A DNA stretch of 46,923 nt from Candidatus Nomurabacteria bacterium (GCA_943354525.1 CALRCI010000001.1:1-46923), one strand, 5' to 3'. Numbered from the stretch's first letter, positions 14,920-41,736 are shown. Made by a program: numbers and translations. The notes: a model not told the origin generated them from the letters alone.

Positions 14920-15519
14920 TTATTTCTTAAACACCGCCCGCATCACCCCGATAAACGTCGGCAGAAGCGAGATGAAGCTGATGACGAGGACGATCGGCAG
15001 AAGATAGGTATCGATATCCGGTACGTGCCGGCCGAGATAATATCCGAGAATCGGAACGGTAAGACTCCAGAGGATTCCGCCGACGATATTCCATTTGAGA
15101 AATGTCTTGTAGGGCATGTTGCCGACGCCGGCAATCATCGGCACGAGTGTGCGAATGATGGGAATAAATCGTGCGAGGATGAGCGAACGTGCACCGTGCG
15201 CGGCAAAAAATTTCTGCGCGTCTTCGGCATAGCGACGTTTGAAAAACCATGATTCGTCGCGCGTAAACAATTTCGGTCCGAGCGCATGCCCGATCTTGAA
15301 TCCGACACTGTCTCCTACGACTGCAGCAATCGCCACACCGACGATGAGCACTGGCAGAGAAATATATCCGGCCGCGGCAAAAATTCCTGCCGTGAAGAGT
15401 AGCGAATCTCCCGGCAAGATAATACCGACGAGAAGACCGCTCTCGGCAAAGATTGCCAGAAAGACGCCAAGGAGGCCGATGGTCTTGATCAAATGTTCAG
15501 GATTGAGAATTGTATCCAT
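14920..15519 (-). CDS. DedA family membrane protein
   Basis: Motifs GLLVGIILPGDSLLFTAG and RFIPIIRTLVPMIAGVGNMPYKTFLKWN. Start set at ATG 15519 (MDTILNP...), 1 nt after the upstream gene's stop. Confidence 0.85.
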   Translation of the reverse strand: MDTILNPEHLIKTIGLLGVFLAIFAESGLLVGIILPGDSLLFTAGIFAAAGYISLPVLIVGVAIAAVVGDSVGFKIGHALGPKLFTRDESWFFKRRYAEDAQKFFAAHGARSLILARFIPIIRTLVPMIAGVGNMPYKTFLKWNIVGGILWSLTVPILGYYLGRHVPDIDTYLLPIVLVISFISLLPTFIGVMRAVFKK

Positions 15520-15520
15520 A

Positions 15521-15898
15521 TCAGCGGACTTTAGAACCAGGAGTAACTGCAACTTCTGGAGTGAGAAATACTGGAGCGCCATCTGTGCCATCGACGGCCA
15601 TGAGCATGCCGCGGGATTCGATGCCACGAATCATGCGTGGTTCGAGATTGACGATGTAGAGCACTTGCTTGCCGATGAGACTCGCAAATTCGGGATGAAA
15701 TTCGCGGATGCCGGAGACAATCTGACGGAGTTCTCCGCCAGCTGGCGGACCACCAAAGTCCACCATGCATTTGAGCAACTTGTCAGTCCCATCCACCGGC
15801 TCGATCTCACGAATTGTGCCGACGCGGATGTCCATTTTCTTGAATTCGTCATAGGTAACGAATGCGGTTTTCTGTTCTGGTTGTGTAGATTCTTCCAT
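15521..15898 (-). CDS. tRNA-binding domain protein (CsaA/Trbp111/EMAP-like)
   Basis: ...MDIRVGTIREIEPVDGTDKLLKCMVDFGG...RQIVSGI...GKQVLYIVNLEPRMIRGIESRGMLMAV... is an OB-fold tRNA-binding domain. Start at ATG 15898, 6 nt after TATGAT, with TTGGAT 17 nt further upstream. Confidence 0.8.
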   Translation of the reverse strand: MEESTQPEQKTAFVTYDEFKKMDIRVGTIREIEPVDGTDKLLKCMVDFGGPPAGGELRQIVSGIREFHPEFASLIGKQVLYIVNLEPRMIRGIESRGMLMAVDGTDGAPVFLTPEVAVTPGSKVR

Positions 15899-15904
15899 AT
15901 GCTC

Positions 15905-15910
15905 ATCATA
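15905..15910 (-). promoter_or_regulatory. -10 box TATGAT, 6 nt before ATG 15898, with TTGGAT -35 at 17-nt spacing
   Basis: Minus strand TTGGATtttacctactcctcgcgTATGATgagcatATG. Confidence 0.6.
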
Positions 15911-16279
15911 CGCGAGGAGTAGGTAAAATCCAAGATTTGACATGTCTGGGAAAAAGCATAGAGTATATGACAAATGCATTGAGCCTGATGTGTCCGCAAT
16001 ACACGTCATTGACATGGCGCATGCATCCAGTTCTTTGGCACACTGGAGTCCCTATCGATAGAAGGGTTGAGTAGAAATGTGGAATAATTTCTGATTCAAA
16101 AATCTGTCAAAACCAAACGCCATTTAATGGCTCGCATGATGCGTCAATCCTTTTCATGAATACGAGAAATCCTTTTTACGAACACTGGATATCTTCTATA
16201 AAGAAAACGGAAACGTCATTACGCAAACAAAAATAACAGGATGAATCTCTTGAATGAGCGCTCTCCTGTTTTTTTATTT

Positions 16280-18025
16280 TTACACTACTTCTAATTGATA
16301 ACACCGTTCGCAGTAGAGCAAATACTTTTCTTTGGGATCAAACAGTGAATCGATTGTTTTACCGCATTTCGCGCACGTACTCGTATATTTCTTACCGGTC
16401 GGCGCCATATGCATGCGCTCTTCCATGCGTACTTGCGGATGACGAGTTGGGAGTGGTAATTTCATATCGCGATAAAATGCAAGCTCGGTCGGCACGATAC
16501 GGAACGGTTTGCCCGTTTCCTCGCATCGAATGGTACCATTCAAGATATCATCCGAAACAGCATCGATGGTTTCAGGAATCTCATCTTTGGCAAGCACGGC
16601 TATATCACCGGCATTGGATTCCGCTTCGCCGGCGACATATCCACCGAATTCCCGTATCGCCGCATCGGTGAGCGGATACGCGATCTGACCGAGAGAAATA
16701 TTGTATGCTTGCGCCGAGAATTCCATGCCGAGTCCGTCGGCATATTCGCCCTGTTCCAGTAACGCAGTTTTAATCGTATCGACGAGGGTAAAATATTCTT
16801 TTTCATCATACTGTTTGTTGAAAACACAACACGATTTACCTTGGAGGCCGAAACACATGAAGCAATACGACACATTCTTACAGTTGAAAATATATTCCGA
16901 ATCAGTGCAATACTTCGACGAAACGGAAAATTTCACCCAGCTCGAACTCGAACCGATATTAGTCGTGCCATAGAGATGATCCGATCCTCCGGAAAAGAGG
17001 AGATCCATCGAATCGTGATGTCCGAGCGGACTATCGGCATGACGAACATGCTCAGCTTTGACCGCATCAACGATATCGTGTACATCCTTGGAATTCACAA
17101 TGCCGACACCAGAGACATTTTGAGATCCGACATTATGCGAAGCATTCATTGGAAGCGTACGTACTAAACCCCAGAATTTTTTCTCATATTCAGCCACTGT
17201 TGTTCGCGAAAGCGGATACACTGACTGCAAAAATTGCTCGTACGCTTCTTTGGAAAGCTGTTCGTTCCAAACACAATACTTCTTGTTGCGCAGATTGACG
17301 CATCCGAAACAATCCTGGCAATTATGGCAGTCAAACAAAAACATTGAATTCAAACAATTATTTGAGAAATACGCAAACGATACGCGAAACAAATGATCAC
17401 AGAGCTGGCTTCCATACACATGATCCGAATTACGGATTGTACGCGAATCCATGACCACTTTGCTCTTGTTCGCGAAGTTGGTATACCACACGTCTTCGCA
17501 TTCGAAGCAGCCACCTGCATAATAGGCATTCTTAGTGTTGCGTCCACCGCTTGAATAATCACTGTTCGTGCTTGCAAGATCGCGATTCAGAAACGACGGC
17601 AACGGAAACTGTTTGCGAAGCGTGAGGAGTTGCGAGAGCGGACTCTGCGCCGGATCGTATTCCATACCGAACGAGAGCGGATCGAATGCATCGCCGATGA
17701 AATACTTATAATCATAAATCGGAAACGGGCAGTCTGGTGGAAAGGTTGAAATCATTTTTTCCGCATGCTCAGGCGCCATGCAATCTCGCTTGAAAAGCCG
17801 AAGCATACCCATATGCACCAGCCGACGCATGCGCCGGCATGTCGGACAGAAAGAGGGCGGCGGGACGCGGAGCATGCGGAGGAATTCGATGTCTTCGTTC
17901 GTGATTTCAAAATCGCCTTCGCAGTGCTCGTGCTTCCCTTTCCAGGTACATGTGCGTGTATGCGGAATAAGCGATTCGAGAATCGGATCCAGAAGTGCGT
18001 CAAATTGTGGGGTTTTGGATTGCAT
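16280..18025 (-). CDS. large cysteine-rich protein, paralog 1 (581 aa, degenerate terminal zinc-ribbon modules); function unknown
   Basis: Long intact ORF. ATG lies directly after the stop of paralog 2. Shares ...CHNCQDCFGCVNLRNKKYCVWNEQLSKEAY... and ...CFMCFGLQGKSCCVFNKQYDEKEY... blocks and the C-terminal ...YCERCYQLE with the other two paralogs. Confidence 0.85.
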   Translation of the reverse strand: MQSKTPQFDALLDPILESLIPHTRTCTWKGKHEHCEGDFEITNEDIEFLRMLRVPPPSFCPTCRRMRRLVHMGMLRLFKRDCMAPEHAEKMISTFPPDCPFPIYDYKYFIGDAFDPLSFGMEYDPAQSPLSQLLTLRKQFPLPSFLNRDLASTNSDYSSGGRNTKNAYYAGGCFECEDVWYTNFANKSKVVMDSRTIRNSDHVYGSQLCDHLFRVSFAYFSNNCLNSMFLFDCHNCQDCFGCVNLRNKKYCVWNEQLSKEAYEQFLQSVYPLSRTTVAEYEKKFWGLVRTLPMNASHNVGSQNVSGVGIVNSKDVHDIVDAVKAEHVRHADSPLGHHDSMDLLFSGGSDHLYGTTNIGSSSSWVKFSVSSKYCTDSEYIFNCKNVSYCFMCFGLQGKSCCVFNKQYDEKEYFTLVDTIKTALLEQGEYADGLGMEFSAQAYNISLGQIAYPLTDAAIREFGGYVAGEAESNAGDIAVLAKDEIPETIDAVSDDILNGTIRCEETGKPFRIVPTELAFYRDMKLPLPTRHPQVRMEERMHMAPTGKKYTSTCAKCGKTIDSLFDPKEKYLLYCERCYQLEVV

Positions 18026-19720
18026 TTATAAAACTTCCTTCTGATAACAACTTTCACAATACACCATCTCAGGCCGCTCTGGCGAGTAGGCGGTCTCAAA
18101 TTCATTCGGGCAGATGCTTCCGTGATCGTGATTTTCTTTTGTACAGGTACATCTACGATGCCAGAGTTTGCGCGGCAGGCGCAGTGCGATACGGTCTTTC
18201 TCGCGGCAGTCAGGACACTTTCTCGGAAGCGGAATGACTTCTCGCTTATAAAACGTTAGTTCGTCAGCAGTAATATTGAAATTCTTCGTGCACGTCGCGC
18301 AGGTGAAAACATTTTTGATAAATGCTTCGTCGACATCAGCGATAGAGTCCGGAACGTCACTCATTGCAATCGTGCCTTTGTCGAATACTCCCGACACTTT
18401 GTCTTCCCAGTGCCAGCCATGCGCCAGCACTTCGTCCCGAGTCATGGGCAAATAAATCGCTCCGCGGGTCTCGTTGTAGTAGACCGGAGCGATAGCGACT
18501 GGGAAAAATTCACCGTATTCTCCCGTCTGCTTCATATGCTCGATGATCTTATTCTTGAGTTCTGTGTATTCTTCCTTGGTGTATTTCTTGTTCAGAATCA
18601 TGTACTCGCCTTTCTTCACCGAGACGCAGCCGAAGAGATTCTGGCTGTTCTGACATGAATCGCAATACATGAGATGCGAATTGTCATAGCAGAGGTGCGA
18701 AAACTGCGTATTATAAATCCCGGTACAGCCTTGGCATTCGTAGCAAAGCTCGACTTTGCGTCCAACGTGATAGAGATCCATCGAGTCCTTGATGTCGAGG
18801 CTTCCATAAATATTTTTGCAATCCTCCGCACGGTCAAGCTCAAAACAATTGTCGACATTTTTGCAGTTAAACAGCAGATTGCCATGGGCGTTCAGATTGC
18901 GTTCGCCCTGCATGAATTTGTGCACGGCACGATATGCAATCATATCTTTGTATTCTCGGAGCAACCCCTCTCGCACGGTATACGATCCGAAATCAATTTC
19001 TTTCATCTTTTCCAAATATTCTTCGCGCGAAAGTTTCTGATTTCTGAACACATAATTCTGATTGCGCAGATTCGAAGACATGAAGCAGTTGCCCGAACCG
19101 TTGACGTCATAACAGTAACGGCAGTCGGTCGAACTGTTGAGCAGGAGGCATGACTGTGATTTGTAGGAATTCTGCGTATCGATACAGTCATGGAGCTTCT
19201 CGCCTTTGTCATAGATGTAACTGCAATCAGTGCAGTCGCGCGAATTCATGCACCACGTAGTGTAGAGGATATTTTCACTATCGAACGTAGCGAACGAAAT
19301 ATATGCGTTCTTGTTATTGCCGCAATGATTCGTGTAATCCGAATTCGTGCTGTTCTTCGCAAGGAGCGCCATGCGTGGAGCTTTGTGCTGGAGTTCTGCG
19401 AACTGCTCGAAGAACGGTCGCGAGAAATCGAAATCCTGTCCCGAATCCGTCACATCCCAAGCGTCACCCCACCAGCAACTGAGACAATACACCTTGTATG
19501 GTTTCTCGGGAGAATAAATCGTCACCGTACTCCTCTGGCATAAGTCGCAATTTCTCCGATAGAGCGTGCGTTCGTTGCGCCATGCATAGCGCCGCTGCTG
19601 CCGGCAATCGACGCACCATGTCGGCGCCGGTACGCCGAGTTTCTCATAGAATGCGAAATCATCCGATTCTATAGTGAAATCCTGGTGGCAGTTCTGGCAG
19701 TTTCGAGTTGCGGGATTCAT
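18026..19720 (-). CDS. large cysteine-rich protein, paralog 2 (564 aa) with N- and C-terminal double zinc-ribbon modules; function unknown
   Basis: N-module CQNCHQDFTIESDDFAFYEKLGVPAPTWCVDCRQQRR...LYRRNCDLC...VYCLSCW recurs at the C-terminus (CATCTKNFNITADELTFYKREVIPLPRKCPDCREKDR...VYCESCYQKE). Start set at ATG 19720, 6 nt after TGCTATTAT. Confidence 0.85.
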   Translation of the reverse strand: MNPATRNCQNCHQDFTIESDDFAFYEKLGVPAPTWCVDCRQQRRYAWRNERTLYRRNCDLCQRSTVTIYSPEKPYKVYCLSCWWGDAWDVTDSGQDFDFSRPFFEQFAELQHKAPRMALLAKNSTNSDYTNHCGNNKNAYISFATFDSENILYTTWCMNSRDCTDCSYIYDKGEKLHDCIDTQNSYKSQSCLLLNSSTDCRYCYDVNGSGNCFMSSNLRNQNYVFRNQKLSREEYLEKMKEIDFGSYTVREGLLREYKDMIAYRAVHKFMQGERNLNAHGNLLFNCKNVDNCFELDRAEDCKNIYGSLDIKDSMDLYHVGRKVELCYECQGCTGIYNTQFSHLCYDNSHLMYCDSCQNSQNLFGCVSVKKGEYMILNKKYTKEEYTELKNKIIEHMKQTGEYGEFFPVAIAPVYYNETRGAIYLPMTRDEVLAHGWHWEDKVSGVFDKGTIAMSDVPDSIADVDEAFIKNVFTCATCTKNFNITADELTFYKREVIPLPRKCPDCREKDRIALRLPRKLWHRRCTCTKENHDHGSICPNEFETAYSPERPEMVYCESCYQKEVL

Positions 19721-19726
19721 AGCCAA

Positions 19727-19732
19727 ATAATA
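19727..19732 (-). promoter_or_regulatory. -10 box TGCTATTAT, 6 nt before ATG 19720
   Basis: Minus strand tgcTATTATttggctATG. Confidence 0.6.
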
Positions 19733-19841
19733 GCATAATTGGGGTATTTGACATTTGACACTCTACGATAGATTGATATACTGAAAGTACAAATTGCCAC
19801 TTGGCACGACTCTGCTATGGCAGAGGTAATTATACAAAAGC

Positions 19842-20237
19842 TCAAGGAAATAATGCCTTGAGCTTTTGCTTTATTACCGCAGATTCTTTGCCTGTTATCT
19901 TACCTAGAATATGACTTAACCTTCGAGCGTCAATGAGGCGCATTTGTGAAAGAATAACGGAACCATGAACATCGCCGGAATCGATTGGCGCATAAAAAAT
20001 TCCTTCTTTTTTATTTGAAGTTATTGGAATACCGTAAAAAATATTTTTGTTGAATTTACGAATGATCAAAACCGGTCTCAAGTATTGACGGCCTTTTCCA
20101 TCTTCTTCACTGCCAACATTTAACCCTAGAACACACCACCATACCTCTCTTTCTGAAAATAAAGGTAGATTTTCATTCGTATGAATTATTTTCTTAGCTT
20201 CGTTCCACCGGTCGAAATCTTTTCCATATATTTGCAT
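19842..20237 (-). CDS. MazF/PemK-family endoribonuclease toxin-like protein (131 aa), no adjacent antitoxin ORF
   Basis: Aligns by eye to B. subtilis EndoA: GSEEDGKGRQYLRPVLIIR vs GSEQGGVRPVLVIQ, and SVILSQMRLIDARRL vs SVILLEQIRTIDKQRL. Visibly AT-richer than its neighbours. Confidence 0.8.
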   Translation of the reverse strand: MQIYGKDFDRWNEAKKIIHTNENLPLFSEREVWWCVLGLNVGSEEDGKGRQYLRPVLIIRKFNKNIFYGIPITSNKKEGIFYAPIDSGDVHGSVILSQMRLIDARRLSHILGKITGKESAVIKQKLKALFP

Positions 20238-20734: not shown

Positions 20735-20762
20735 CCATGGAATTTAAGGATTTTAATTGTGG

Positions 20763-20768
20763 TATACT
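20763..20768 (+). promoter_or_regulatory. -10 box TGGTATACT, 6 nt before in-frame GTG 20775
   Basis: tggTATACTggactaGTG. Confidence 0.5.
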
Positions 20769-20774
20769 GGACTA

Positions 20775-21257
20775 GTGTCTGAGCAATACAAAAGGAAACC
20801 AAATACTATCTGTAGTATTTGCAATAAATCCATTTATCGAAGACCGATTGAATTAGAAAAATCTAACGATCGCGCGTTTTGTAGTATGAAATGCTATGGC
20901 ATTTCTAATCGGAAAGAACATCCTTGTGTTGTTTGTGGAAAACTACTTCTATCTTCTTTGAATAAAAAAACTTGTAGTAGAAGTTGTGCTAATACAAATC
21001 GATCTGGCATAAAGTATAAAATTGGTAGACCAAATGATAAAGTGACCTTAGAAAGAAGAATGAAATTTAAACTTCTCGAACAAAGAGGAAAAGTTTGTGA
21101 GAGATGCGGATATACTAAACATGAAATCCTCCAAGTACATCATAAAAATCGAAACCATCAAGATAACCGGATCGAAAACTTAGAACTTATTTGCCCTAAC
21201 TGTCATTGCGAGGAACATTATCTTAAAAACAGCTGGTTGAAAAATTATACAAAATAA
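20775..21257 (+). CDS. HNH endonuclease with N-terminal zinc-ribbon-like CxxC pairs
   Basis: HNH motif CERCGY...LQVHHKNRNHQDNRIENLELICPNCH. In-frame GTG 20775 lies 6 nt after TGGTATACT (the ORF track starts at TTG 20757). AT-rich. Confidence 0.8.
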   Translation: MSEQYKRKPNTICSICNKSIYRRPIELEKSNDRAFCSMKCYGISNRKEHPCVVCGKLLLSSLNKKTCSRSCANTNRSGIKYKIGRPNDKVTLERRMKFKLLEQRGKVCERCGYTKHEILQVHHKNRNHQDNRIENLELICPNCHCEEHYLKNSWLKNYTK

Positions 21258-31829: not shown

Positions 31830-33527
31830 CTAATTAGCTTCCTGCTGATAGCATGTTTCGCAATACACGATCTCCGACCGCTCAGGCACGTAACTTGTCT
31901 TGATTTCTTTTTCGCATTTCATGCAGAAGCGATCATAGAGCTGCGGCGGATTCACTGTGTTGAATCTCCGCTTGAATCTACACTTCCAGCATTTCACCGG
32001 GAACGGTACGCCGATCTTTCTATGCAGTTGAATCTCAAGCGTAGTAATTCTAAATCCTTTTTTACATTCAGCGCATTCTATAATTTCTTTTTGGATCGCA
32101 TCATCGATATCTGCTACTGTTTCAGGAACTTGGTCAGCGGTCATGGTCGTCGTATGTTCTGAATCAGGAATATCATGCCACTGCATCCCGCCCTCAATAA
32201 TTTCATTTTTTGAAAGCGGGAAATAATAATCAGCCATTGTTTCGTTGTACGCAAACGGTGAGAACATGAACGGGAAAAATTCTCCATAACTCCACACGCG
32301 GCCTTTCTCATCCGTATATGGATTTGTCTTCATGTCAGCAATAATCTTTTCCCGAAGCACTAGATATTCTTCTTTTGTATATTGCTTGTTGAGAATGCAG
32401 TATTGCTTGCGTTTGAGATTGTAGCAGCCAAAACAATCTTTGGATTGATTGGCATAAAAACAGTACTCCAGATTGAGGGCATTCGGCCAGCATTGCGCCG
32501 AGAAGTGGTCGTTGTATGCGCTCTCGCCCACGGTCAAACATTCGTATAAATTCTCCGCGCCATATCCCCAGTTAGTGTAATCATAACAATTCTTCGTCGG
32601 TCCCATCGTCAGCATCTGCACGAATCGCGAATCTTCAACACTCGAAACCATATATGAGTCTTTAGTGTTTTTCGATTCATAGATGAAATCACCGGTAGTA
32701 TTCACATTCAAGCCATTACCCGCAGTCGCCCGGCGAGGCTGTGTCATAAAGAATTCGCGTGATTGTTGAAGCATTGATTCGATCCCCTCGCGAGTATCAA
32801 GTCGCATTTCAGCAACTTTCTTTTTATACTCTTCCTTGCTGTATTGCTGATTGAAAATACAATTCGATTTATTGCGCAGATTTATGCACCCGACACAATC
32901 GACACAGCCTGAGCAGGAACGAGAAAAATGCGTATCAGTACATGAATCAAGCTCTTCGCTATATATGCAGTGATAACTCTTATACATTCCGACACATTCA
33001 TAACAGAGTTCGACTTCTTTGAAGCGATAGCCGTCCAATGAATCCGCCACATGGGCATAGACCATACAATACGCAGTACGCTCCCCATAATCGGCATTAA
33101 ATACCATGAAACAGTCTTTCTGATACGCTGTAGCGTTCACATAGGGTGAATTTACGAGCGTAGAATACAAATTTTCGATGGCCATGAAAGTAGATTTGTC
33201 TTTCAATTCAGCCAGTTGTTCAAAGAAATTTCGGTTCGGATCATAGTCCATGCCATATTCCGTGCCATCCCATGTATCTCCGAACCAGCATTTCGGACAG
33301 AACACACGATATGGCGTGCCGTCACGTAGATTTGAAATAATGGATTCATTGCAGTTCGCACAAGCTCTCTTATAGAGAGTAATCCAGTTCAGAAAGGCCA
33401 GCCGGCGCTGAAACCGACACCCAGGACACCATGTTGGCGGCGGAACATTTATTTTCTTATAGAAATTAAAATCATCCGGCTCGATCACGAAATCCTTTTT
33501 GCAGTTTTGGCAGTTTTTAGTTTCCAC
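31830..33527 (-). CDS. large cysteine-rich protein, paralog 3 (565 aa) with N- and C-terminal double zinc-ribbon modules; function unknown
   Basis: N-module CQNCKKDFVIEPDDFNFYKKINVPPPTWCPGCRFQRR...LYKRACANC...VFCPKCW. C-module CAECKKGFRITTLEIQLHRKIGVPFPVKCWKCRFKRR...LYDRFCMKC...VYCETCYQQE. GTG start 2 nt after the holA-like stop. Confidence 0.85.
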   Translation of the reverse strand: METKNCQNCKKDFVIEPDDFNFYKKINVPPPTWCPGCRFQRRLAFLNWITLYKRACANCNESIISNLRDGTPYRVFCPKCWFGDTWDGTEYGMDYDPNRNFFEQLAELKDKSTFMAIENLYSTLVNSPYVNATAYQKDCFMVFNADYGERTAYCMVYAHVADSLDGYRFKEVELCYECVGMYKSYHCIYSEELDSCTDTHFSRSCSGCVDCVGCINLRNKSNCIFNQQYSKEEYKKKVAEMRLDTREGIESMLQQSREFFMTQPRRATAGNGLNVNTTGDFIYESKNTKDSYMVSSVEDSRFVQMLTMGPTKNCYDYTNWGYGAENLYECLTVGESAYNDHFSAQCWPNALNLEYCFYANQSKDCFGCYNLKRKQYCILNKQYTKEEYLVLREKIIADMKTNPYTDEKGRVWSYGEFFPFMFSPFAYNETMADYYFPLSKNEIIEGGMQWHDIPDSEHTTTMTADQVPETVADIDDAIQKEIIECAECKKGFRITTLEIQLHRKIGVPFPVKCWKCRFKRRFNTVNPPQLYDRFCMKCEKEIKTSYVPERSEIVYCETCYQQEAN

Positions 33528-37694: not shown

Positions 37695-39740
37695 TTAGTT
37701 ATAGATCGTATGCACGGAGTCGCCATTCGACTTCGTTGTCGTCGTGGTCACACTCTTGCGGCGTGAGTAGAGCTCATTGGCGAGCCAGACGAGCGCGAGA
37801 ATGATGGCGATCAGGATGAGCCAGCCGACAAGCGTCGTCGGGAAGAATCCGCCCGAGAAGAATGCGAGGCCGGCGAGATTGGAATTATTACGGCAGCTCT
37901 GCGTCGAATTGATCGCATAGGCAATCGCATCTTCCTGCGCCGTCGTCGTTGGATTCGTGAATGCCATCGTTGCCGTTGCCACGACCATGTCGTGGAGAAC
38001 TACTGACGTTCCGGCAATACCTGAGACGAAGACTTGTCCTGACTGGCCCGGTACGAGTGTGCCGATTGGTACCGTCACTGAGTTGTCAGAGTCGCCATAT
38101 GAGCCGACAGATGACTGTGTGAACGTAATACCGGTCGGAAGTGCGATACGGAGGACGACGTTACTGAGTGTTTTGTTAGAAATGTTTTTGTAATCAACTG
38201 TGTAATCTGCCGTATTAGTCGGACAAATATTCTGGTAACGATTCGCCACTGAGAGCGAGACAAAGTTCGAACCGTTGCCGCCACCGCTTGCAATGACCTG
38301 TGTCACAACAGTTGTCGTTGAAACTGCTGCTGTACGGAAGCTGACGATATCGCCGCGAAGTGTCTGGCCATTATTGGTCGCGACTGCGCGGAAATAGTAC
38401 GTCGTGTTCGGAGAAAGTCCGCTGATACCGTCATTGAAACTGAGACTCGTCGGATTGCCGAGATTCTGAGTGTTGGTCGTATTGCCAAGCGCCTGCGTCG
38501 TACCCCATTCGAAATACGATGTGACTGCGCCGCCGTTACCGCCGGCCATGAGGCCATTGAGGCGAGCAGATGTCTGGCCGATGTAGTTAGCAATCGTAGT
38601 TGCGACTGAGAACTGGCTGACTGGCGTCACAACATACGGCGTGACGTAGACATAGGTCGTACTCGTCTGACTGAGTGCTCCGTAGTTGTTGCAGTATGCC
38701 GTCAGCGTGTACGTGATCGTACCAGATGTGGTCGGTGTGATGAATTGCTGGCTCGATGCGCCGAGATTGCTCGAGTAGTAGCCATTACTGCCACTGATAG
38801 TGACATAGCTCGCGCCATTGGTGACCCAGTAGAGCGTCGTACTCGTACCTTGAGTGATTGAAGATGGAGTCGCATAGAACTGGCCGATCGTACAGACTGC
38901 TACTGGCGGCGGTACATATGAGGTACTGACAGTGACTGTCATCGGATTTGCCGCCTGACCAGTCGCACTATATGCATTGAGTGTAAACGTAGTGGTTCCG
39001 TAGATCGGACCAGTACTCTGCGTGTAGGAACTGTTCACGGGAACAGAACCGAGGTTAGTGATTGAAGCGGTCGCACAACCGGTGGTTGACCACGAGAGCG
39101 TTGTTGCAGATCCTGACGGTACGGTAGGCTGTGCAGCTACGAATGAATTGATGACACATGACTGCTGCTGTACGTTCGTACCAATGTAGAAGGAAACGAC
39201 AACTGAACCCTGATGCGACCAGCCGGGAGCGATCGTGCCGAGATTGAGGCCTGAGGCAAAAATCTCAGAACCGGACTGGCCGAGTGGCAATGCCGTCGGA
39301 GTCTGCATCTGATCCGGATACCACTTCACTGATCCGTATGAGAGGATCTGTGGAGATGAGAGATTGATCGTGCCCGAGCCGGAAGCGCTGCCACCAGACG
39401 TAGACGAGACACTGCCCGAAAACGAAGCCGTACTCATCGTGCCTGATGGCTGGTTGAGGTGCACGGTCGTACTGGCAGCATCCGTCGTGCCGGTGTTGTG
39501 ATAATAAATGCGAACGTTCACGATCTGACCTTGGTCAGCCGAAACGCTCGGTGCCCAACAGTTGTTATTCCAACCGGTTGAGTTAATGCCTGCGCCAGTC
39601 GTGAAGTTGCCGACACCGACCGTACTACAGTCATTCGCGACAGGCGAGAATGACGATGCCGCAAATGCATGCGGTGCGGCAAATCCAAGCGCGATGAGCG
39701 CAAAGATTGCCACTATTGATTTTGATAAAATTTTCTTCAT
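37695..39740 (-). CDS. large surface protein with signal peptide, Ig/FN3-like repeats and C-terminal membrane anchor (681 aa)
   Basis: Signal peptide MKKILSKSIVAIFALIALGFAAPHAFA. FN3-like unit ...LSPNTTYYFRAVATNNGQTLRGDIVSFRT. C-terminal TM LVGWLILIAIILALVWL followed by RRK. Start moved to ATG 39740 because the 18 upstream codons lie in the palindromic clamp element. Confidence 0.8.
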   Translation of the reverse strand: MKKILSKSIVAIFALIALGFAAPHAFAASSFSPVANDCSTVGVGNFTTGAGINSTGWNNNCWAPSVSADQGQIVNVRIYYHNTGTTDAASTTVHLNQPSGTMSTASFSGSVSSTSGGSASGSGTINLSSPQILSYGSVKWYPDQMQTPTALPLGQSGSEIFASGLNLGTIAPGWSHQGSVVVSFYIGTNVQQQSCVINSFVAAQPTVPSGSATTLSWSTTGCATASITNLGSVPVNSSYTQSTGPIYGTTTFTLNAYSATGQAANPMTVTVSTSYVPPPVAVCTIGQFYATPSSITQGTSTTLYWVTNGASYVTISGSNGYYSSNLGASSQQFITPTTSGTITYTLTAYCNNYGALSQTSTTYVYVTPYVVTPVSQFSVATTIANYIGQTSARLNGLMAGGNGGAVTSYFEWGTTQALGNTTNTQNLGNPTSLSFNDGISGLSPNTTYYFRAVATNNGQTLRGDIVSFRTAAVSTTTVVTQVIASGGGNGSNFVSLSVANRYQNICPTNTADYTVDYKNISNKTLSNVVLRIALPTGITFTQSSVGSYGDSDNSVTVPIGTLVPGQSGQVFVSGIAGTSVVLHDMVVATATMAFTNPTTTAQEDAIAYAINSTQSCRNNSNLAGLAFFSGGFFPTTLVGWLILIAIILALVWLANELYSRRKSVTTTTTKSNGDSVHTIYN

Positions 39741-39754
39741 ATATTTTCTTGTCT

Positions 39755-39884
39755 CGCCCCGAATTCTTTCCTGATCTGATTTTTTAATCGACACGCATAA
39801 TTTCTTGCTAGAAATTTGCTGGAGCTCGGCTACCCGCCTCCGCGCGGTCTCATAAAAAATCAGATCAGGAAAGAATTCGGGGCG
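39755..39884 (-). repeat. Family-1 clamp element, copy C: 32-bp perfect arms (39755-39786 / 39853-39884) around a 66-nt core (39787-39852)
   Basis: CGCCCCGAATTCTTTCCTGATCTGATTTTTTA and its exact reverse complement. Core reverse complement is 56/66 identical to copy B, with 4 compensatory pair swaps in the internal hairpin. Confidence 0.9.
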
Positions 39885-39999: not shown

Positions 40000-41736
40000 T
40001 TACTTGTGACTTACAGACATACCGCCTTTGATACCGCCAGTTTGCATTTTTGTGCCTACGTTGGAGAGTATTGAATTGTTGGTGTTATATGTCCCGAGGT
40101 GCGATTGCATCGGATACGAGGTGTTTGCGGTGTTGGATGTATTCCAATACGTTATATTGCCCGTCTTCTGCGAGGGTGCTTGTGACCAGGTTTGTTTGGG
40201 AGCGACATTCTGAGTGGAAGCCGTAGCAGTGCTCCATGAAGGATTCGTTCCTTTTGAACTTGTGGTCTGTTGATAGCTGATGTGTGGTTGCGGTGTACTG
40301 GTAGTTGCGGCAGATGCTTTTGTCGTAGTTGCGAGCTGTGTCGTATGCGAAGCACTGATGCCGTTCTGTGTTTGTGTGCCAGCAACTCCTTTGATTCCCA
40401 TCGTATTTGAGGAAGTTGGATTAGTCGGTGGCACTTTCGTGTAAACCGAATTCGCATTTGTCGAAGCCATCGACTGCGACGAATACTTTGTCTGCGTCTG
40501 TGCACCTCCTTTTACTGCAGTAGTAGCTACAGGAATCGTATTGCCTGGCGGCGTTTTGGCATAAATTGAACTATTAGTAGTAGCCATATTCGTACTGCCT
40601 GCCATGCGATGACCGCCTGTACCAGCTGGTCCTTGATCCCCGTTTCCGAGAACACCAGTTCCATTGCCGTTATAGGTGATATCACCATGACCCGGTGCAG
40701 GGGCTGGGCCTCCTGACTGCGGATTTACTGATGGCAAATACGTTACAACAAAGTTGTTAAATGAATTCGTATTGAATGAATTCACATTATTCGTGGTGTT
40801 GTAGTAATTATTCACGACATTCTGCACTTGCGGAGTGTTGTAGTAACCGCACTGCTGCTGGCCATACGAGTTCGTGAATATGAAGCTGAATTGGATGCAC
40901 GCTTGCGCAAGCAACCCACAGAGCGGTGATCCGTACTGTGGCATACAATAGCCTTGATATTGCTGTGGCTGGTCATAAATGACCGGCTGAGAACAATACT
41001 GCTGGCGATTCTGGTCATAATAACCATAGTCAGTGCCTTCAGGTGCGGATTGCGTATACTCCGGATGGTTATCAAGATGATTATCAATATGAATATTGAT
41101 GTCACCATTGCCATTCGTGTGAATTGTCGTATCAGCTCCGTTATACGTAATCGTCTGATTTTGTTTCGCAGTCGATGGTGACGTAGTAATCGGAATCGGC
41201 GTGCGGTCAGCAATCTGATTCACGCAGCCTTTCTTAGCAAGCACGGCTTTTTGGCCGTTTGATGCAGTGTACACGAGGCACAGTGTGTTGAAACCTGATG
41301 GTGAAAGGTAAAAACCATACTTTTGATTGACCTTATCCCATCCGAAGATAGCATAGTGTCCTACATCAGAGCATGGCGGGTACTCCCACTTGGATGCGCG
41401 ATATTTTGCAATTATCGTCTGCGCATCAACAGTTGCTTCACCAAGTCGTACAGCATCATAACCATTCCATATCAATGCGGCCTGTTGGTTATAATTTTCA
41501 CTAGTTACTCCCGGCGTTGCGCCTGCGAAGTCTCCATTTGCCATGTGGTCGGCGAATGCGTCTCCAGTAGCACCGGCAACGCATGGAAAATTACAATCTT
41601 GCCAGATAGGATTAAGTTCTTTTGAGTTCTGGTGCAGAGCATCATTGTCAACCCATTGCAGTGTTTGAGAGTGTGCAGTGTTTGTAATAAGTAATGTTGT
41701 CAAAGAGGCGAGTAAAATCGTTAAATAATTTTTCAT
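40000..41736 (-). CDS. secreted protein with Q/N/Y-rich and S/T-rich low-complexity C-terminal half (578 aa)
   Basis: Signal peptide MKNYLTILLASLTTLLITNTAHSQ. Folded-looking N-terminal ~190 aa, then a Q/N/Y-rich segment (YYDQNRQQYCSQPVIYDQPQQYQGYC...NNYYNTTNNVNSFNTNSFNN) and repeated T/S-rich units. Confidence 0.8.
   Translation of the reverse strand: MKNYLTILLASLTTLLITNTAHSQTLQWVDNDALHQNSKELNPIWQDCNFPCVAGATGDAFADHMANGDFAGATPGVTSENYNQQAALIWNGYDAVRLGEATVDAQTIIAKYRASKWEYPPCSDVGHYAIFGWDKVNQKYGFYLSPSGFNTLCLVYTASNGQKAVLAKKGCVNQIADRTPIPITTSPSTAKQNQTITYNGADTTIHTNGNGDINIHIDNHLDNHPEYTQSAPEGTDYGYYDQNRQQYCSQPVIYDQPQQYQGYCMPQYGSPLCGLLAQACIQFSFIFTNSYGQQQCGYYNTPQVQNVVNNYYNTTNNVNSFNTNSFNNFVVTYLPSVNPQSGGPAPAPGHGDITYNGNGTGVLGNGDQGPAGTGGHRMAGSTNMATTNSSIYAKTPPGNTIPVATTAVKGGAQTQTKYSSQSMASTNANSVYTKVPPTNPTSSNTMGIKGVAGTQTQNGISASHTTQLATTTKASAATTSTPQPHISYQQTTSSKGTNPSWSTATASTQNVAPKQTWSQAPSQKTGNITYWNTSNTANTSYPMQSHLGTYNTNNSILSNVGTKMQTGGIKGGMSVSHK

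Follow-up and report, generated by a model that had tools for sequence, protein, structure and literature searches.

Three proteins of a Candidatus Nomurabacteria genome belong to a very large, undescribed family with double treble-clef modules flanking a duplicated Cys/Asn-periodic core

The proteins p1, p2 and p3, encoded in a 46,923-nucleotide stretch of DNA from a Candidatus Nomurabacteria bacterium (the window, i.e. the whole stretch that was analyzed), diverged anciently from one another within a very large protein family that is undescribed and uniform in architecture. Family members consist of a double treble-clef module, a duplicated Cys/Asn-periodic and β-rich core with helix-capped halves, an acidic linker and a second double treble-clef module. 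Gene context in other genomes suggests that these proteins may be clients, either cargo or adaptors, of a VirD4/TraG-like ATPase, a reading that we hold tentatively and with somewhat less than even confidence.

Table 1 Coordinates of the three genes, their modules and the promoter-like site in the window.
Feature	Position	Strand	Details
p1	16280-18025	-	581 aa, 26 Cys
p1 C-terminal module	16283-16546	-	residues 494-581; finger 1 reduced to C501 + His (TRHPQVR)
p1 N-terminal module	17696-17956	-	residues 24-110; finger 1 C26-x8-C35 and C60,C63
p2	18026-19720	-	from ATG at 19720; 564 aa, 36 Cys, four terminal Cys4 sites all intact
p2 C-terminal double zinc module	18029-18322	-	residues 469-566
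p2 central half 2	18542-18874	-	residues 285-395; ends LFGC...KKYTKEEY, then capping helix
p2 central half 1	18992-19324	-	residues 135-245; hexapeptide-like C-x-[D/N]-C-x-x units
p2 N-terminal double zinc module	19442-19705	-	residues 8-95
Promoter-like site	19727-19754	-	ATGTCA (19754-19749), 16-nt spacer, extended -10 TGcTATTAT (19735-19727)
p3	31830-33527	-	565 aa, 34 Cys, GTG start; adjoins upstream gene ending 33530
p3 C-terminal double zinc module	31833-32096	-	C485,C488/C513,C516; C535,C538/C556,C559
p3 N-terminal double zinc module	33255-33518	-	C6,C9/C34,C37; C56,C59/C77,C80

All three genes are full-length ORFs, arranged as an earlier note on this DNA had described them, namely as a tandem p2-p1 pair and a separate third paralog (Table 1); no further family copies were found in the window. 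The p1 start codon (ATG, 18025) lies directly against the p2 stop codon (18026-18028). An alternative start of p2 is a TTG at 19726 (18026-19726, 566 aa), and p2 residue numbers follow this 566-aa form. p2 and p3 share 35% identity (E 3e-115) while p1 is 27% identical to either (E 1e-61 to 1e-65). The sequence motifs quoted in the earlier note can be found in the proteins, but its Cys content of about 9% was too high, the actual values being 4.5% for p1 (26/581), 6.4% for p2 (36/566) and 6.0% for p3 (34/565). A simple hydropathy scan detected no TM-like hydrophobic segment in p1-p3 and one among 253 family ORFs. PADLOC defence-system profiles returned no matches for p1-p3. Structure prediction yielded models for p2 (pLDDT 83.9, pTM 0.82) and p1 (pLDDT 86.0, pTM 0.88). 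Neither has a significant match in the PDB and all faint matches are β-helix proteins. The promoter-like site upstream of p2 is separated by 6 nt (ttggct) from the ATG at 19720, and a Shine-Dalgarno sequence is absent. A leaderless transcript is plausible from the upstream sequence, the site itself not being statistically set apart from shuffles, as the region contains 11 promoter-like sites compared with 8.3 +/- 2.5 in shuffled sequences, i.e. no enrichment. A gene for a tRNA_bind protein is located beside p1, a holA-like gene and PolA are found near p3, and S9/L13 lie upstream of arrays.

The central domain alone recruits 3,593 clusters at 50% identity, and at 90% identity the family comprises 7,408 clusters or more. 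Nearly all of the top 150 central-domain clusters encode proteins of about 550-600 aa; the exceptions are some shorter entries, which are probably partial, and a single one of 731 aa. Genome loci number at least 582, and the best 80 of them all carry Patescibacteria-lineage names or unclassified-MAG labels and include Paceibacteria lineages, Gracilibacteria, Peregrinibacteria and Peribacteria. The earlier note had raised the question of whether the family is restricted to CPR bacteria, and every named record examined is indeed from Patescibacteria; no phage or plasmid copies were found. Other genomes encode co-directional arrays of 5-11 anciently diverged copies, with copy number per locus ranging from 1 to 11, and the description as a tandem pair plus a third copy is therefore an understatement. 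Array mates are 30-47% identical to one another and each has a relative in another genome at 50-77% identity. Similarly, orthologue groups exist for each of p1, p2 and p3.

Profile-profile comparison shows that the N-terminal module of p2 (residues 3-86) is homologous to its C-terminal module (469-562; probability 99.5%, E 1.8e-22) and that central half 1 is homologous to half 2 (135-245 and 285-395; 99.7%, E 6e-27), bearing out both nested internal duplications proposed earlier. In p2, the first N-terminal finger (C10,C13/C38,C41) is zf_Tbcl-like with a basic CR-x2-RR helix and is followed by a second finger (C60,C63/C81,C84). The first C-terminal finger (C476,C479/C504,C507) matches Pfam zf_Tbcl, while the last finger (C526/C528,C539/C557,C560), whose first Cys pair deviates (C526/C528...C539), is zf_Tbcl_2-like and terminates in VYCESCYQKEVL. 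The zf_Tbcl match (PF13451; p2 residues 473-512, 27.8 bits, E 2.4e-6) exceeds the gathering cut-off of 24 bits; none was reported for p1 and p3, and several orthologues carry a precomputed PF13451 match. Scores for zf_Tbcl_2 (PF23477/TIGR04272) are 24.5 bits for p1, 21.9 for p3 and 13.6 for p2, all under the cut-offs of 27 bits (PF23477, Pfam) and 36 bits (TIGR04272, NCBIfam). Many orthologues have a precomputed PF23477 match and JGI labels some of them 'CxxC-x17-CxxC domain-containing protein', a spacing that is found in p1 (C551-x2-C554-x17-C572-x2-C575) and p3 (C535..C538-x17-C556..C559). The terminal modules, previously assigned to no named domain, thus match zf_Tbcl above threshold and zf_Tbcl_2/TIGR04272 just below it, which are named, functionally uncharacterised domains ("probable treble clef" in Pfam). 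Their predicted topology, a knuckle hairpin followed by a helix that provides the second Cys pair, is that of a treble clef and not of the zinc ribbon suggested earlier.

In known zf_Tbcl/TIGR04272 examples, the finger makes up a small protein by itself or occurs as a single domain. In the family, by contrast, each terminal module combines a zf_Tbcl-like finger with a subsequent zf_Tbcl_2-like finger, and this two-finger unit of about 85 aa occurs twice per protein, flanking a core of about 370 aa absent from those examples. One family finger can be superposed with phage 'zinc-ribbon domain' proteins (rmsd 0.6-0.7 Å, 32-37% identity). Another comparison is offered by LIM, a eukaryotic double zinc finger (about 55 aa, C2HC+C4) that serves as a protein-interaction module, given that the family likewise joins two successive Cys4-type fingers into a unit. 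In a family profile search, the last finger marginally matches the second LIM finger in the PDB (E ~1e-3, one finger only). The Pfam LIM profile was rejected, scoring 14.8 bits in p3 only compared with a cut-off of 22.9, and the module of about 85 aa has a helix-rich spacer and no His ligand; homology to LIM beyond Cys spacing has no support. Across 216 proteins, conservation of the terminal Cys residues is 96-100% in the first finger of the N-terminal and the last finger of the C-terminal module. Judging from these residues and by analogy, each protein would bind as many as four Zn through its terminal modules, or two in the p1 subfamily; CxxC-x17-CxxC (TIGR04272) proteins of Methanosarcina mazei bind zinc as determined by ICP-MS (PMC12704099). 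The modules likely represent the conserved handles of family proteins.

Gene neighborhoods were analyzed in 83 loci selected by family genes and, in reverse, in 80 loci selected by the ATPase alone. This analysis, proposed in the earlier note, revealed that arrays in other genomes often adjoin a VirD4/TraG-like ATPase. The family-selected loci contain 38 T4CP-like genes (in 28/83 loci), 27 of which directly adjoin a family gene (23 loci), always on the same strand; as a baseline, 21% of all non-family genes in the 83 loci adjoin a family gene. Intergenic gaps are mostly below 100 bp (range -8 to +260), with 8 being at most 4 bp or overlapping, and the adjacency is found in both Paceibacteria and Gracilibacteria-type lineages in several arrangements. 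PF23477 is matched by type A ATPases at 46 and 34 bits, and the matching module aligns to the last finger of the family. Outside the family, this last-finger module was found in 12 ORFs in 1.37 Mb, 11 of them such ATPases and the twelfth an 80-aa ORF (L017). Fused ATPases have an N-extension, and the membrane partner shows homology to it. In the reverse sample, a family gene adjoins the ATPase in 11/80 loci, 10 of which fall within the 29 closest relatives (L087-L115). No T4SS channel genes (virB4, virB6 or others) were found in the fetched loci. Patescibacteria have been reported to encode 5,713 VirD4-like T4CPs, 148 of them near virB4, and exaptation was suggested (PMC12102498). Compared with PADLOC profiles, the ATPases gave weak mad8/HerA P-loop matches only. 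CutA1 (divalent-ion tolerance) adjoins family genes in 3 loci. Genes for GrpE, DnaK and DnaJ recur around arrays in other genomes, with canonical DnaJ being encoded separately there. Owing to these neighbors and the Cys-rich repeats, a DnaJ/J-domain co-chaperone (HPD J domain, CxxCxGxG zinc center) was also considered and rejected, as p1-p3 have no DnaJ, DnaJ_CXXCXGXG or DnaJ_C match.

As ATPase clients, family proteins would be made in the cytoplasm and then be handled or translocated as cargo by the ATPase motor; alternatively, they could act as paralog-specific adaptors bringing different ligands to the ATPase. The proposed motor would be the VirD4/TraG-like ATPase, which is widespread among Patescibacteria, is an orphan with respect to type IV secretion genes and is equipped with the family's last zinc finger. 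It has a membrane-anchored N-domain partner, either separately encoded or fused, and ATPase and arrays are often encoded among grpE-dnaK-dnaJ genes. Several observations argue against clients of this kind. Such an ATPase is absent from the window and from about 8 kb past its right end; for p1-p3, the ATPase link is made solely through homologues in other genomes. Many family genes have no nearby ATPase, for example p1-types located between ArgRS and IleRS, and more distant zinc-finger ATPases have a SecA/SecDF-PGK context from which family genes are absent. Further, the GrpE-array-DnaK pattern is partly inherited synteny among related Paceibacteria, subfamily conservation (up to 77% between genomes) is unlike that of fast-evolving secreted effectors, and folded zinc domains would be awkward translocation cargo.

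Some known secretion systems have a substrate family encoded next to their ATPase. Xanthomonas T4SS effectors share the VirD4-binding XVIPCD, and in type VII secretion LXG/WXG arrays neighbor the FtsK-like EssC. Like these, the family combines paralog arrays, conserved 'handle' domains, a variable body and a VirD4/FtsK-HerA-type ATPase in the operon. Unlike in these systems, the ATPase is found away from T4SS channel genes (PMC12102498) and the zinc finger of the handle is common to the ATPase. In addition, the family paralogs are ancient and individually conserved and not fast-evolving.

It is also possible, though in our view unlikely, that family members act autonomously, as scaffolds that bind nucleic acids or have a housekeeping role, with basic fingers binding RNA or DNA, the solenoid serving as a spacer and the proximity to ATPase and Hsp70 genes reflecting uncoupled synteny. 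The first fingers are indeed basic (mean net charge +2.5 and +5.0) with a conserved CR-x2-RR helix, but the whole proteins are acidic (pI 5.4-5.8) and, apart from generic zinc fingers, match no known family that binds nucleic acids. Frequent translation and replication neighbors (ArgRS/IleRS, tRNA_bind, holA-like, PolA, S9/L13), the high, housekeeping-like conservation of subfamilies and the window copies without a nearby ATPase would fit such a scaffold, which however leaves unexplained both the last finger common to ATPase and family and the operon-like adjacency in several arrangements and two classes.

p1 had been interpreted as a degenerate partner subunit. The Cys losses on which this was based were confirmed: residues 26-35 form C-x8-C, and TRHPQVR replaces the C-terminal second CxxC. 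The second N-terminal finger has lost its CxxC pairs, yet is folded in the model, while the second C-terminal finger, which gives the 24.5-bit zf_Tbcl_2 match, is intact (C551,C554/C572,C575). Of the terminal Cys4 sites, the p1 subfamily retains the first N-terminal and the last C-terminal one only. Secondary structure is preserved in the modelled Cys-depleted fingers (pLDDT 88-92), and the p1 model is more confident than that of p2. The orthologue group consists of proteins of about 582 aa with 56-69% identity; the altered N-terminal site C-x-W-x-G-x-H-x-x-C is present in 7/7 p1-type genes and the C-terminal LPLPxxHPxxR in 5/7, those where the pattern matched. p1-types in other genomes stand alone or beside p3-type or other subfamilies, so p2-p1 adjacency is not conserved. 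With a conserved orthologue group to itself and a model of high confidence (pLDDT 86), p1 is therefore not degenerate. Hetero-oligomerization of a ligand-poor p1 with p2 or, more broadly, a single assembly or filament with the paralogs as subunits is accordingly improbable. The abutting and probably translationally coupled p2 and p1 would suit such an assembly, many ancient, individually conserved paralogs recall hetero-oligomeric complexes, and identical modules at both termini could give head-to-tail contacts; p1 with its still folded Cys-poor fingers, the unconserved pairing and the variable copy number per locus all argue against it.

The central region has no Pfam or PDB relative that could be found. 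In p2, half 1 ends in ...NLRNxxYxxxNxxLSxEEY followed by a capping helix. Autocorrelation confirms the solenoid-like Cys/Asn periodicity proposed earlier, with a Cys value of 0.68 at lag 3 (half 1) and an Asn/Asp peak at lag 12 (0.43). Stapling of the center by Cys or metal is doubtful, since most central Cys residues are replaced by Ser/Val/Leu and few are more than 85% conserved. In most members, half 1 is closed by a CxxCxxCxxC block (columns 85-98% Cys), of which p2 keeps one Cys only. The swapping of every-third-residue Cys with Ser/Val/Leu points to a ladder in the core of a narrow solenoid and not to metal ligands. Based on periodicity and weak fold matches, the core would be a narrow solenoid with an interior filled by a Cys/Ser/Val/Leu ladder and a surface that probably varies among paralogs. 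Comparable 12-residue coils, with small or Cys residues facing inward at every third position, form the Cys-ladder β-helix of the secreted, disulfide-bonded Tenebrio antifreeze protein (TCTxSxxCxxAx). The family core shares the third-position small/Cys pattern and the 12-residue Asn/Asp super-period, but unlike antifreeze proteins, p1-p3 have neither a TM-like segment nor an obvious signal peptide. Hexapeptide β-helix proteins, the left-handed class of LpxA/LpxD, GlmU and γ-carbonic anhydrase, were the sole fold-search matches, all insignificant (best Foldseek E 0.036 for p2 and 1.3 for p1, TM <=0.2). This fold was rejected, with no Pfam Hexapep match and a differing consensus (C-x-[D/N]-C-x-x in the family, [LIV]-G-x2-[STAV]-x, also [LIV]-[GAED]-x2-[STAV]-x, in the LpxA type).

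A role as a reservoir for metal or thiols, or as a redox sensor, in which Cys core and zinc sites store or buffer Zn, Fe or reducing equivalents or switch upon oxidation like Hsp33, is very improbable. The 26-36 Cys per protein, the CxxCxxCxxC block, the adjacent CutA1 and the Hsp70-system neighbors would all agree with such a role. However, central Cys are mostly exchanged freely, p2 having kept a single block Cys, ten or more anciently diverged paralogs are unexpected for a bulk buffer, and the uniform, confidently modelled fold favors a structural ladder. That the p1-p3 ORFs are spurious or not expressed can be dismissed given thousands of full-length homologues with 49-77% amino-acid identity across classes, length and architecture being kept, and the confident structure predictions.

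Extending the proposed link to the ATPase, we hypothesize, as a speculative and rather doubtful possibility, that the family is the client repertoire, as cargo or as specificity adaptors, of an unrecognised, Patescibacteria-specific and membrane-associated translocation or remodelling pathway, with a center representing a new and narrow Cys-ladder solenoid fold. The pathway would comprise a TM-anchored N-domain protein and a zinc-finger ATPase with a docking tail, working together with the Hsp70 system, and would draw on the thousands of 'orphan' VirD4-like ATPases. If true, the orphan T4CPs of CPR bacteria would gain a function and their substrates would be named.

The cysteine-rich proteins p1, p2 and p3 are paralogs of one family with a four-part architecture, specifically an N-terminal double zinc module, two central halves and a C-terminal double zinc module. 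By BLAST, p2 and p3 are 35% identical (E 3e-115) and p1 is 27% identical to either (E ~1e-61 to 1e-65). Whole-window tblastn found no further family copies in the window, and its other ~570-aa ORFs were rejected as additional paralogs, being an ABC transporter, PilB and one unrelated protein. The Cys content of about 9% given in the earlier note was too high, the values being 4.5% for p1, 6.4% for p2 and 6.0% for p3, but as the window's median protein contains less than 1% Cys, the term cysteine-rich is still apt. The starts of p1 and p3 lie 0-2 nt from the preceding stop codon, suggesting translational coupling. Upstream of the p2 ATG at 19720, which lacks a Shine-Dalgarno sequence, the minus strand carries a promoter-like string (ATGTCA, 16 nt, TGcTATTAT, ttggct, ATG). 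In a consensus scan this site has 9/12 consensus matches plus an extended -10 TG, and the region contains 11 promoter-like sites vs 8.3 ± 2.5 in shuffled sequence, i.e. no excess; a leaderless p2 transcript would be plausible. In public annotation p3 is called as a 552-aa protein whose start lies 13 codons after the GTG chosen in this work, so that the first CxxC, conserved at 98%, is lost; for p2, the sole identical database entry is a 499-aa fragment. Family proteins may often be truncated N-terminally in public annotation.

A 48-sequence alignment was cut into four pieces that were compared profile against profile. The N module (p2 residues 3-86, numbered from the TTG) matches the C module (469-562) with a probability of 99.5% (E 1.8e-22), half 1 (135-245) matches half 2 (285-395) with a probability of 99.7% (E 6e-27), and modules and halves show no similarity to each other. 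The nested internal duplication noticed earlier is thus real, and its order of module, half, half, module differs from a plain tandem repeat of a single unit. The structural description of the family can be regarded as near-certain.

The terminal modules are the most conserved parts of the family (mean column entropy 1.7-2.1 vs 2.3-2.7 for the centre). In the earlier note they were not recognised as any named domain; in fact, finger 1 of the C module in p2 exceeds the Pfam cut-off of 24 bits for zf_Tbcl (PF13451) with a score of 27.8 bits, and the last finger scores 24.5 (p1) and 21.9 bits (p3) against zf_Tbcl_2 (PF23477), just under the 27-bit cut-off. A match to the NCBIfam equivalent TIGR04272 (CxxC-x17-CxxC) is below threshold, and precomputed PF13451 or PF23477 matches are present in many orthologues. 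Two small CxxC-x17-CxxC proteins of M. mazei bind zinc according to ICP-MS (PMC12704099). In the AlphaFold model each finger consists of a short hairpin with the first CxxC followed by a helix with the second CxxC at its N-terminus, a predicted topology that is treble clef rather than zinc ribbon. Phage proteins annotated as zinc-ribbon domain superpose on one finger with an rmsd of 0.6-0.7 Å at 32-37% identity. In the PDB, neither sequence searches nor the family profile turned up more than marginal similarity between the family's last finger and finger two of LIM domains (E ~1e-3), a likeness of Cys spacing not treated as homology. The first fingers of both modules are basic, the body and linker acidic.

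The central core of about 370 aa is without a family model or solved relative: the centre has no sequence match in Pfam, NCBIfam, PADLOC or the PDB. Using two independent and confident models, of p1 (pLDDT 86.0, pTM 0.88) and p2 (pLDDT 83.9, pTM 0.82), Foldseek found no match at E <= 1e-3 in the PDB or BFVD. The weak fold matches (E >=0.036, TM <=0.2) are almost all left-handed β-helix proteins; apart from β-helix proteins, these searches brought up only single phage zinc fingers. In an HMM-anchored alignment of 216 full-length members, Cys-rich columns fall at every third position, e.g. in 15 consecutive columns from 185 to 227, and the family consensus of the centre consists of hexapeptides C-x-[D/N]-C-x-x. 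Cys autocorrelation is 0.68 at lag 3 in half 1, still present to lag 24, and 0.38 at lag 3 and 0.59 at lag 9 in half 2; for Asn/Asp it is 0.43 (half 1) and 0.27 (half 2) at lag 12. The narrow antifreeze β-helix of Tenebrio has an inward-facing residue at every third position and a 12-residue coil, and the every-third-residue Cys pattern and 12-residue Asn/Asp period of the core resemble it. The solenoid proposed from a 12-16-residue Cys/Asn periodicity was therefore a fair reading, and solenoid geometry may be inferred for the centre. The proposed Cys or metal staples are doubtful: at most central Cys-rich columns Cys exchanges with Ser, Val, Leu or Ala, which speaks for a ladder of packing residues and against staples of metal or disulfide being obligatory. 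Good conservation is confined to a few central Cys (p2 C214 and C367, 98%; two further columns, 85-88%). A CxxCxxCxxC block closes half 1 in most members, of which p2 retains one Cys.

The family is large. Searching with the central domain alone, at the level of 50% identity, retrieved 3,593 representatives, of which 2,607 have E <= 1e-10 and 1,554 have E <= 1e-30. Nearly all of the top 150 are ~550-600 aa long with the domain at ~95-470, the exceptions being shorter, probably partial entries and one 731-aa protein. For p3, at least 7,408 clusters were found at the 90% level. Scanning one genome per GTDB species gave at least 582 loci, the best 80 of which are all labelled as Patescibacteria lineages (Nomurabacteria, Harrisonbacteria, Liptonbacteria, Staskawiczbacteria, Giovannonibacteria, Paceibacterota, Minisyncoccia, Gracilibacteria, Peregrinibacteria, Peribacteria) or unclassified MAGs; restriction to Patescibacteria is supported by these 80 but not proven. 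No family copy was found by tblastn in phage and plasmid collections, and PADLOC gave no defence-system match. An HMM search of loci fetched from other genomes and metagenomes identified 253 family ORFs in co-directional arrays, with 11 copies in 21.7 kb in locus L016, 10 in L072 and 8 in L082; many other arrays contain 5-7. Two contigs of a single MAG (L026 and L071) together carry at least 12 copies. Of the 253 ORFs, one has a TM-like segment by a simple hydropathy scan. Identity between copies of one array is 30-47%, yet for every copy a relative with 50-77% identity exists in another genome, indicating ancient, separately maintained paralogs and not recent amplifications. The family is undescribed in the literature searched, as are its four-part architecture, its large arrays of ancient paralogs and its link to orphan VirD4-like ATPases. 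Some of its parts are of known kinds, namely treble-clef zinc fingers and a β-solenoid-like repeat; it is thus a new multi-domain family built in part from known modules.

Clustering the non-family genes of 83 family-selected loci showed that the commonest recurring neighbour is a VirD4/TraG/HerA-type P-loop ATPase (Pfam TrwB_AAD_bind, TraG-D_C, T4SS-DNA_transf, DUF87). There are 38 such genes in 28 of the 83 loci and 27 directly adjoin a family gene, compared with a baseline of 21% for all non-family genes of these loci. All adjoining ATPases are on the strand of the family gene, with gaps mostly <100 bp (range -8 to +260), eight of them <=4 bp or overlapping. The ATPase gene may come before or after the family gene, with Paceibacteria and Gracilibacteria-type lineages (L032, L076, L082) both represented. 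About 100 residues past the ATPase domain, the longer ATPases, termed Type A, have a zf_Tbcl_2 finger (46 and 34 bits) that aligns to the last finger of the family (HMM 532-564). Across 1.37 Mb, 12 non-family ORFs match the family C module; 11 are such ATPases and the twelfth is an 80-aa ORF in L017. Type A proteins end in a long K/E/P-rich tail followed by a conserved ...EVPEDVLRKILE, Types B and C in ...EEP[LM]I; these extreme C-terminal peptides, which follow long tails of low complexity, look like docking peptides for some partner. A motif [VIL]P[DE][DSTE][IVL] occurs at a fixed site just before the family C-terminal module (HMM 466-487, p2 ~457-475) and also in the Type A C-terminal peptide, with densities of 0.8 and 0.62 vs 0.108 per 1000 residues in other genes of these loci (~6-7-fold). 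As a sign of family-ATPase homology, the shared VP[DE]x[IV] is too short, though enriched.

These ATPases all lack a TM anchor. Often encoded just upstream is a 417-456-aa protein that has one and matches nothing in Pfam; its gene is usually preceded by one for a Sigma70_r4 and HARE-HTH protein. The TM-anchored protein is homologous to the ~320-aa N-extension of fused Type C ATPases (E 1e-10 to 1e-14), so the motor exists in split and fused forms, the latter in Gracilibacteria-type lineages, and is probably membrane-associated. An initial assignment as a soluble HerA-like ATPase, based on the missing TM segments, was softened accordingly.

The association was also approached in reverse, using 80 metagenome loci picked solely by their Type A ATPase. 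In 11 of the 80 the ATPase gene directly adjoins a genuine family gene, with 10 of these 11 among the 29 closest ATPase relatives (L087-L115); ORFs in L133, L145, L153 and L154, probably ATPases matched via their zinc finger, were left out of this count. The association is therefore strong but not universal. Universal linkage was ruled out by distant zinc-finger ATPases (50-57% identity), which lie without a family gene in another conserved context (SecA ... SecD, SecF, sigma-region-4/HARE-HTH protein, TM partner, ATPase, PGK, DHH protein, RNase H), which suggests that these orphan T4CPs serve in housekeeping or in a process related to export. No such ATPase is encoded in the window or the ~8 kb past its right end, which run into dnaN and dnaA. 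A 2025 survey found VirD4-like ATPases to be widespread in Patescibacteria, detached from type IV secretion genes, and raised their exaptation as a possibility (PMC12102498); the word zinc does not occur in it, and its relevant passages do not mention the family.

Around the arrays, GrpE (13 of 14 directly adjacent), DnaK and canonical DnaJ recur, with a common Paceibacteria order of S9, GrpE, two to three family genes, PaaX-like (opposite strand), DnaK, ATPase and two family genes. Part of this GrpE/DnaK pattern is inherited synteny. The family was rejected as a DnaJ replacement, as it has no J domain and DnaJ is encoded separately.

We hypothesize that the family proteins are a set of clients of the VirD4-like ATPase. 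This would fit a core that is rigid, differs in its surface from paralog to paralog and lies between two handles shared by all, one of them also found on the neighbouring ATPase. They could be cargo handled or translocated by the motor with Hsp70 assisting, or adaptors each bringing a different ligand. Taken together with the architecture, this client reading is our best explanation, held tentatively and at somewhat less than even chances; ATPase coupling as such is possible but doubtful, and that the family marks a distinct CPR-specific translocation or remodelling system is rather unlikely. The main rival, an autonomous nucleic-acid-binding or housekeeping role, is itself unlikely.

Less likely than this rival is a hetero-oligomer, as proposed in the earlier note with p1 as a degenerate partner of p2. 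However, p1 retrieves an orthologue group of its own, the best 120 matches being nearly all 580-585 aa long, with a few reaching 611, at 56-69% identity. All 7 p1-type genes of the fetched loci share the changed first site, C-x-W-x-G-x-H-x-x-C, and the Cys-less LPLPxxHPxxR was matched in 5/7; in the p1 model the two fingers without Cys pairs retain their secondary structure (pLDDT ~88-92). The p2-p1 adjacency is not conserved across these loci: p1-types stand alone between ArgRS and IleRS in L002 and L003, after a p3-type gene in L047 and after other subfamilies in L001 and L022. p1 is thus a conserved subfamily, not a decaying partner; p2 and p3 have their own orthologue groups too. The hetero-oligomer is accordingly judged quite improbable. 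The IleRS beside p1-types (L002:9790-13284, L003:2223-5717, L060:9499-13389, L054, L069) is 1,160-1,300 aa long and contains an inserted histidine-phosphatase domain (His_Phos_1, 271 bits), an unusual fusion.

A metal or redox reservoir, also ranked below the main rival, is very improbable. In three loci a gene for CutA1 (divalent-ion tolerance) either separates the ATPase gene from a family gene or immediately precedes a family gene, which hints faintly at a link to metals.

Features of the window and of homologous loci (L numbers) from other genomes and metagenomes
Feature	Location	Strand	Remarks
p1	16280-18025	minus	581 aa; abuts p2
p2	18026-19726	minus	from TTG (566 aa); to 19720 from the ATG named earlier
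p3	31830-33527	minus	565 aa; 12 kb from p1/p2 pair
PemK/MazF-like toxin gene	19842-20237	minus	directly upstream of p2
Hairpin	19835-19868		13-bp stem; overlaps 3' end of PemK/MazF-like gene
Small HNH endonuclease ORF	20757-21257	plus	166 aa, 7.8% Cys, TTG start
VTT/DedA membrane protein	14920-15627	minus	~100-nt overlap with next
tRNA_bind-domain protein	15521-16015	minus	
ORF, no Pfam match	40000-41736	minus	578 aa; beside pilB
ORF, weak DUF11 match only	37695-39794	minus	699 aa; beside pilB
Type A ATPases, conserved terminal peptide	L079:2130-4394, L029:15735-17696, L006:18486-20462, others		
Types B and C ATPases, conserved terminal peptide	L066:6790-8274, L082:15298-17580		
TM-anchored partner	L061:813-2162, L037:6407-7726, L163:6600-7970		compared with L082/L076/L032 ATPase N-termini
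Sec/PGK-context ATPases	L163:3355-12389		~40 similar loci among L116-L166
CutA1	L045:7569-7874, L061:7668-7976, L020:16942-17370		

In the window, no obvious antitoxin ORF lies beside the PemK/MazF-like gene. Apart from the family genes, the HNH ORF, situated between ruvX and the operon after it, is the window's sole Cys-rich ORF. The tRNA_bind-domain gene is the immediate downstream neighbour of p1, and its overlap with the VTT/DedA gene probably reflects an over-extended start of one of them. PolA, RuvA/B/C-type genes and PilB are also encoded, and the two large pilB-adjacent ORFs may be pilus-associated or surface proteins. With dnaN and dnaA located ~5-7 kb past its right end (L085:10924-13668), the window is close to the replication origin.

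Patescibacteria genomes are only about 1 Mb in size, yet up to ~19 kb of one locus (L016) is devoted to this family, which is conserved across classes and labelled hypothetical in every source. If the ATPase link is not functional, the family would still be a useful lineage marker and a large, cleanly defined structural-genomics target with a new solenoid and four zinc sites. If the link is functional, it would provide a concrete, testable handle on the ways in which proteins or nucleic acids are moved or remodelled in these host-dependent bacteria.
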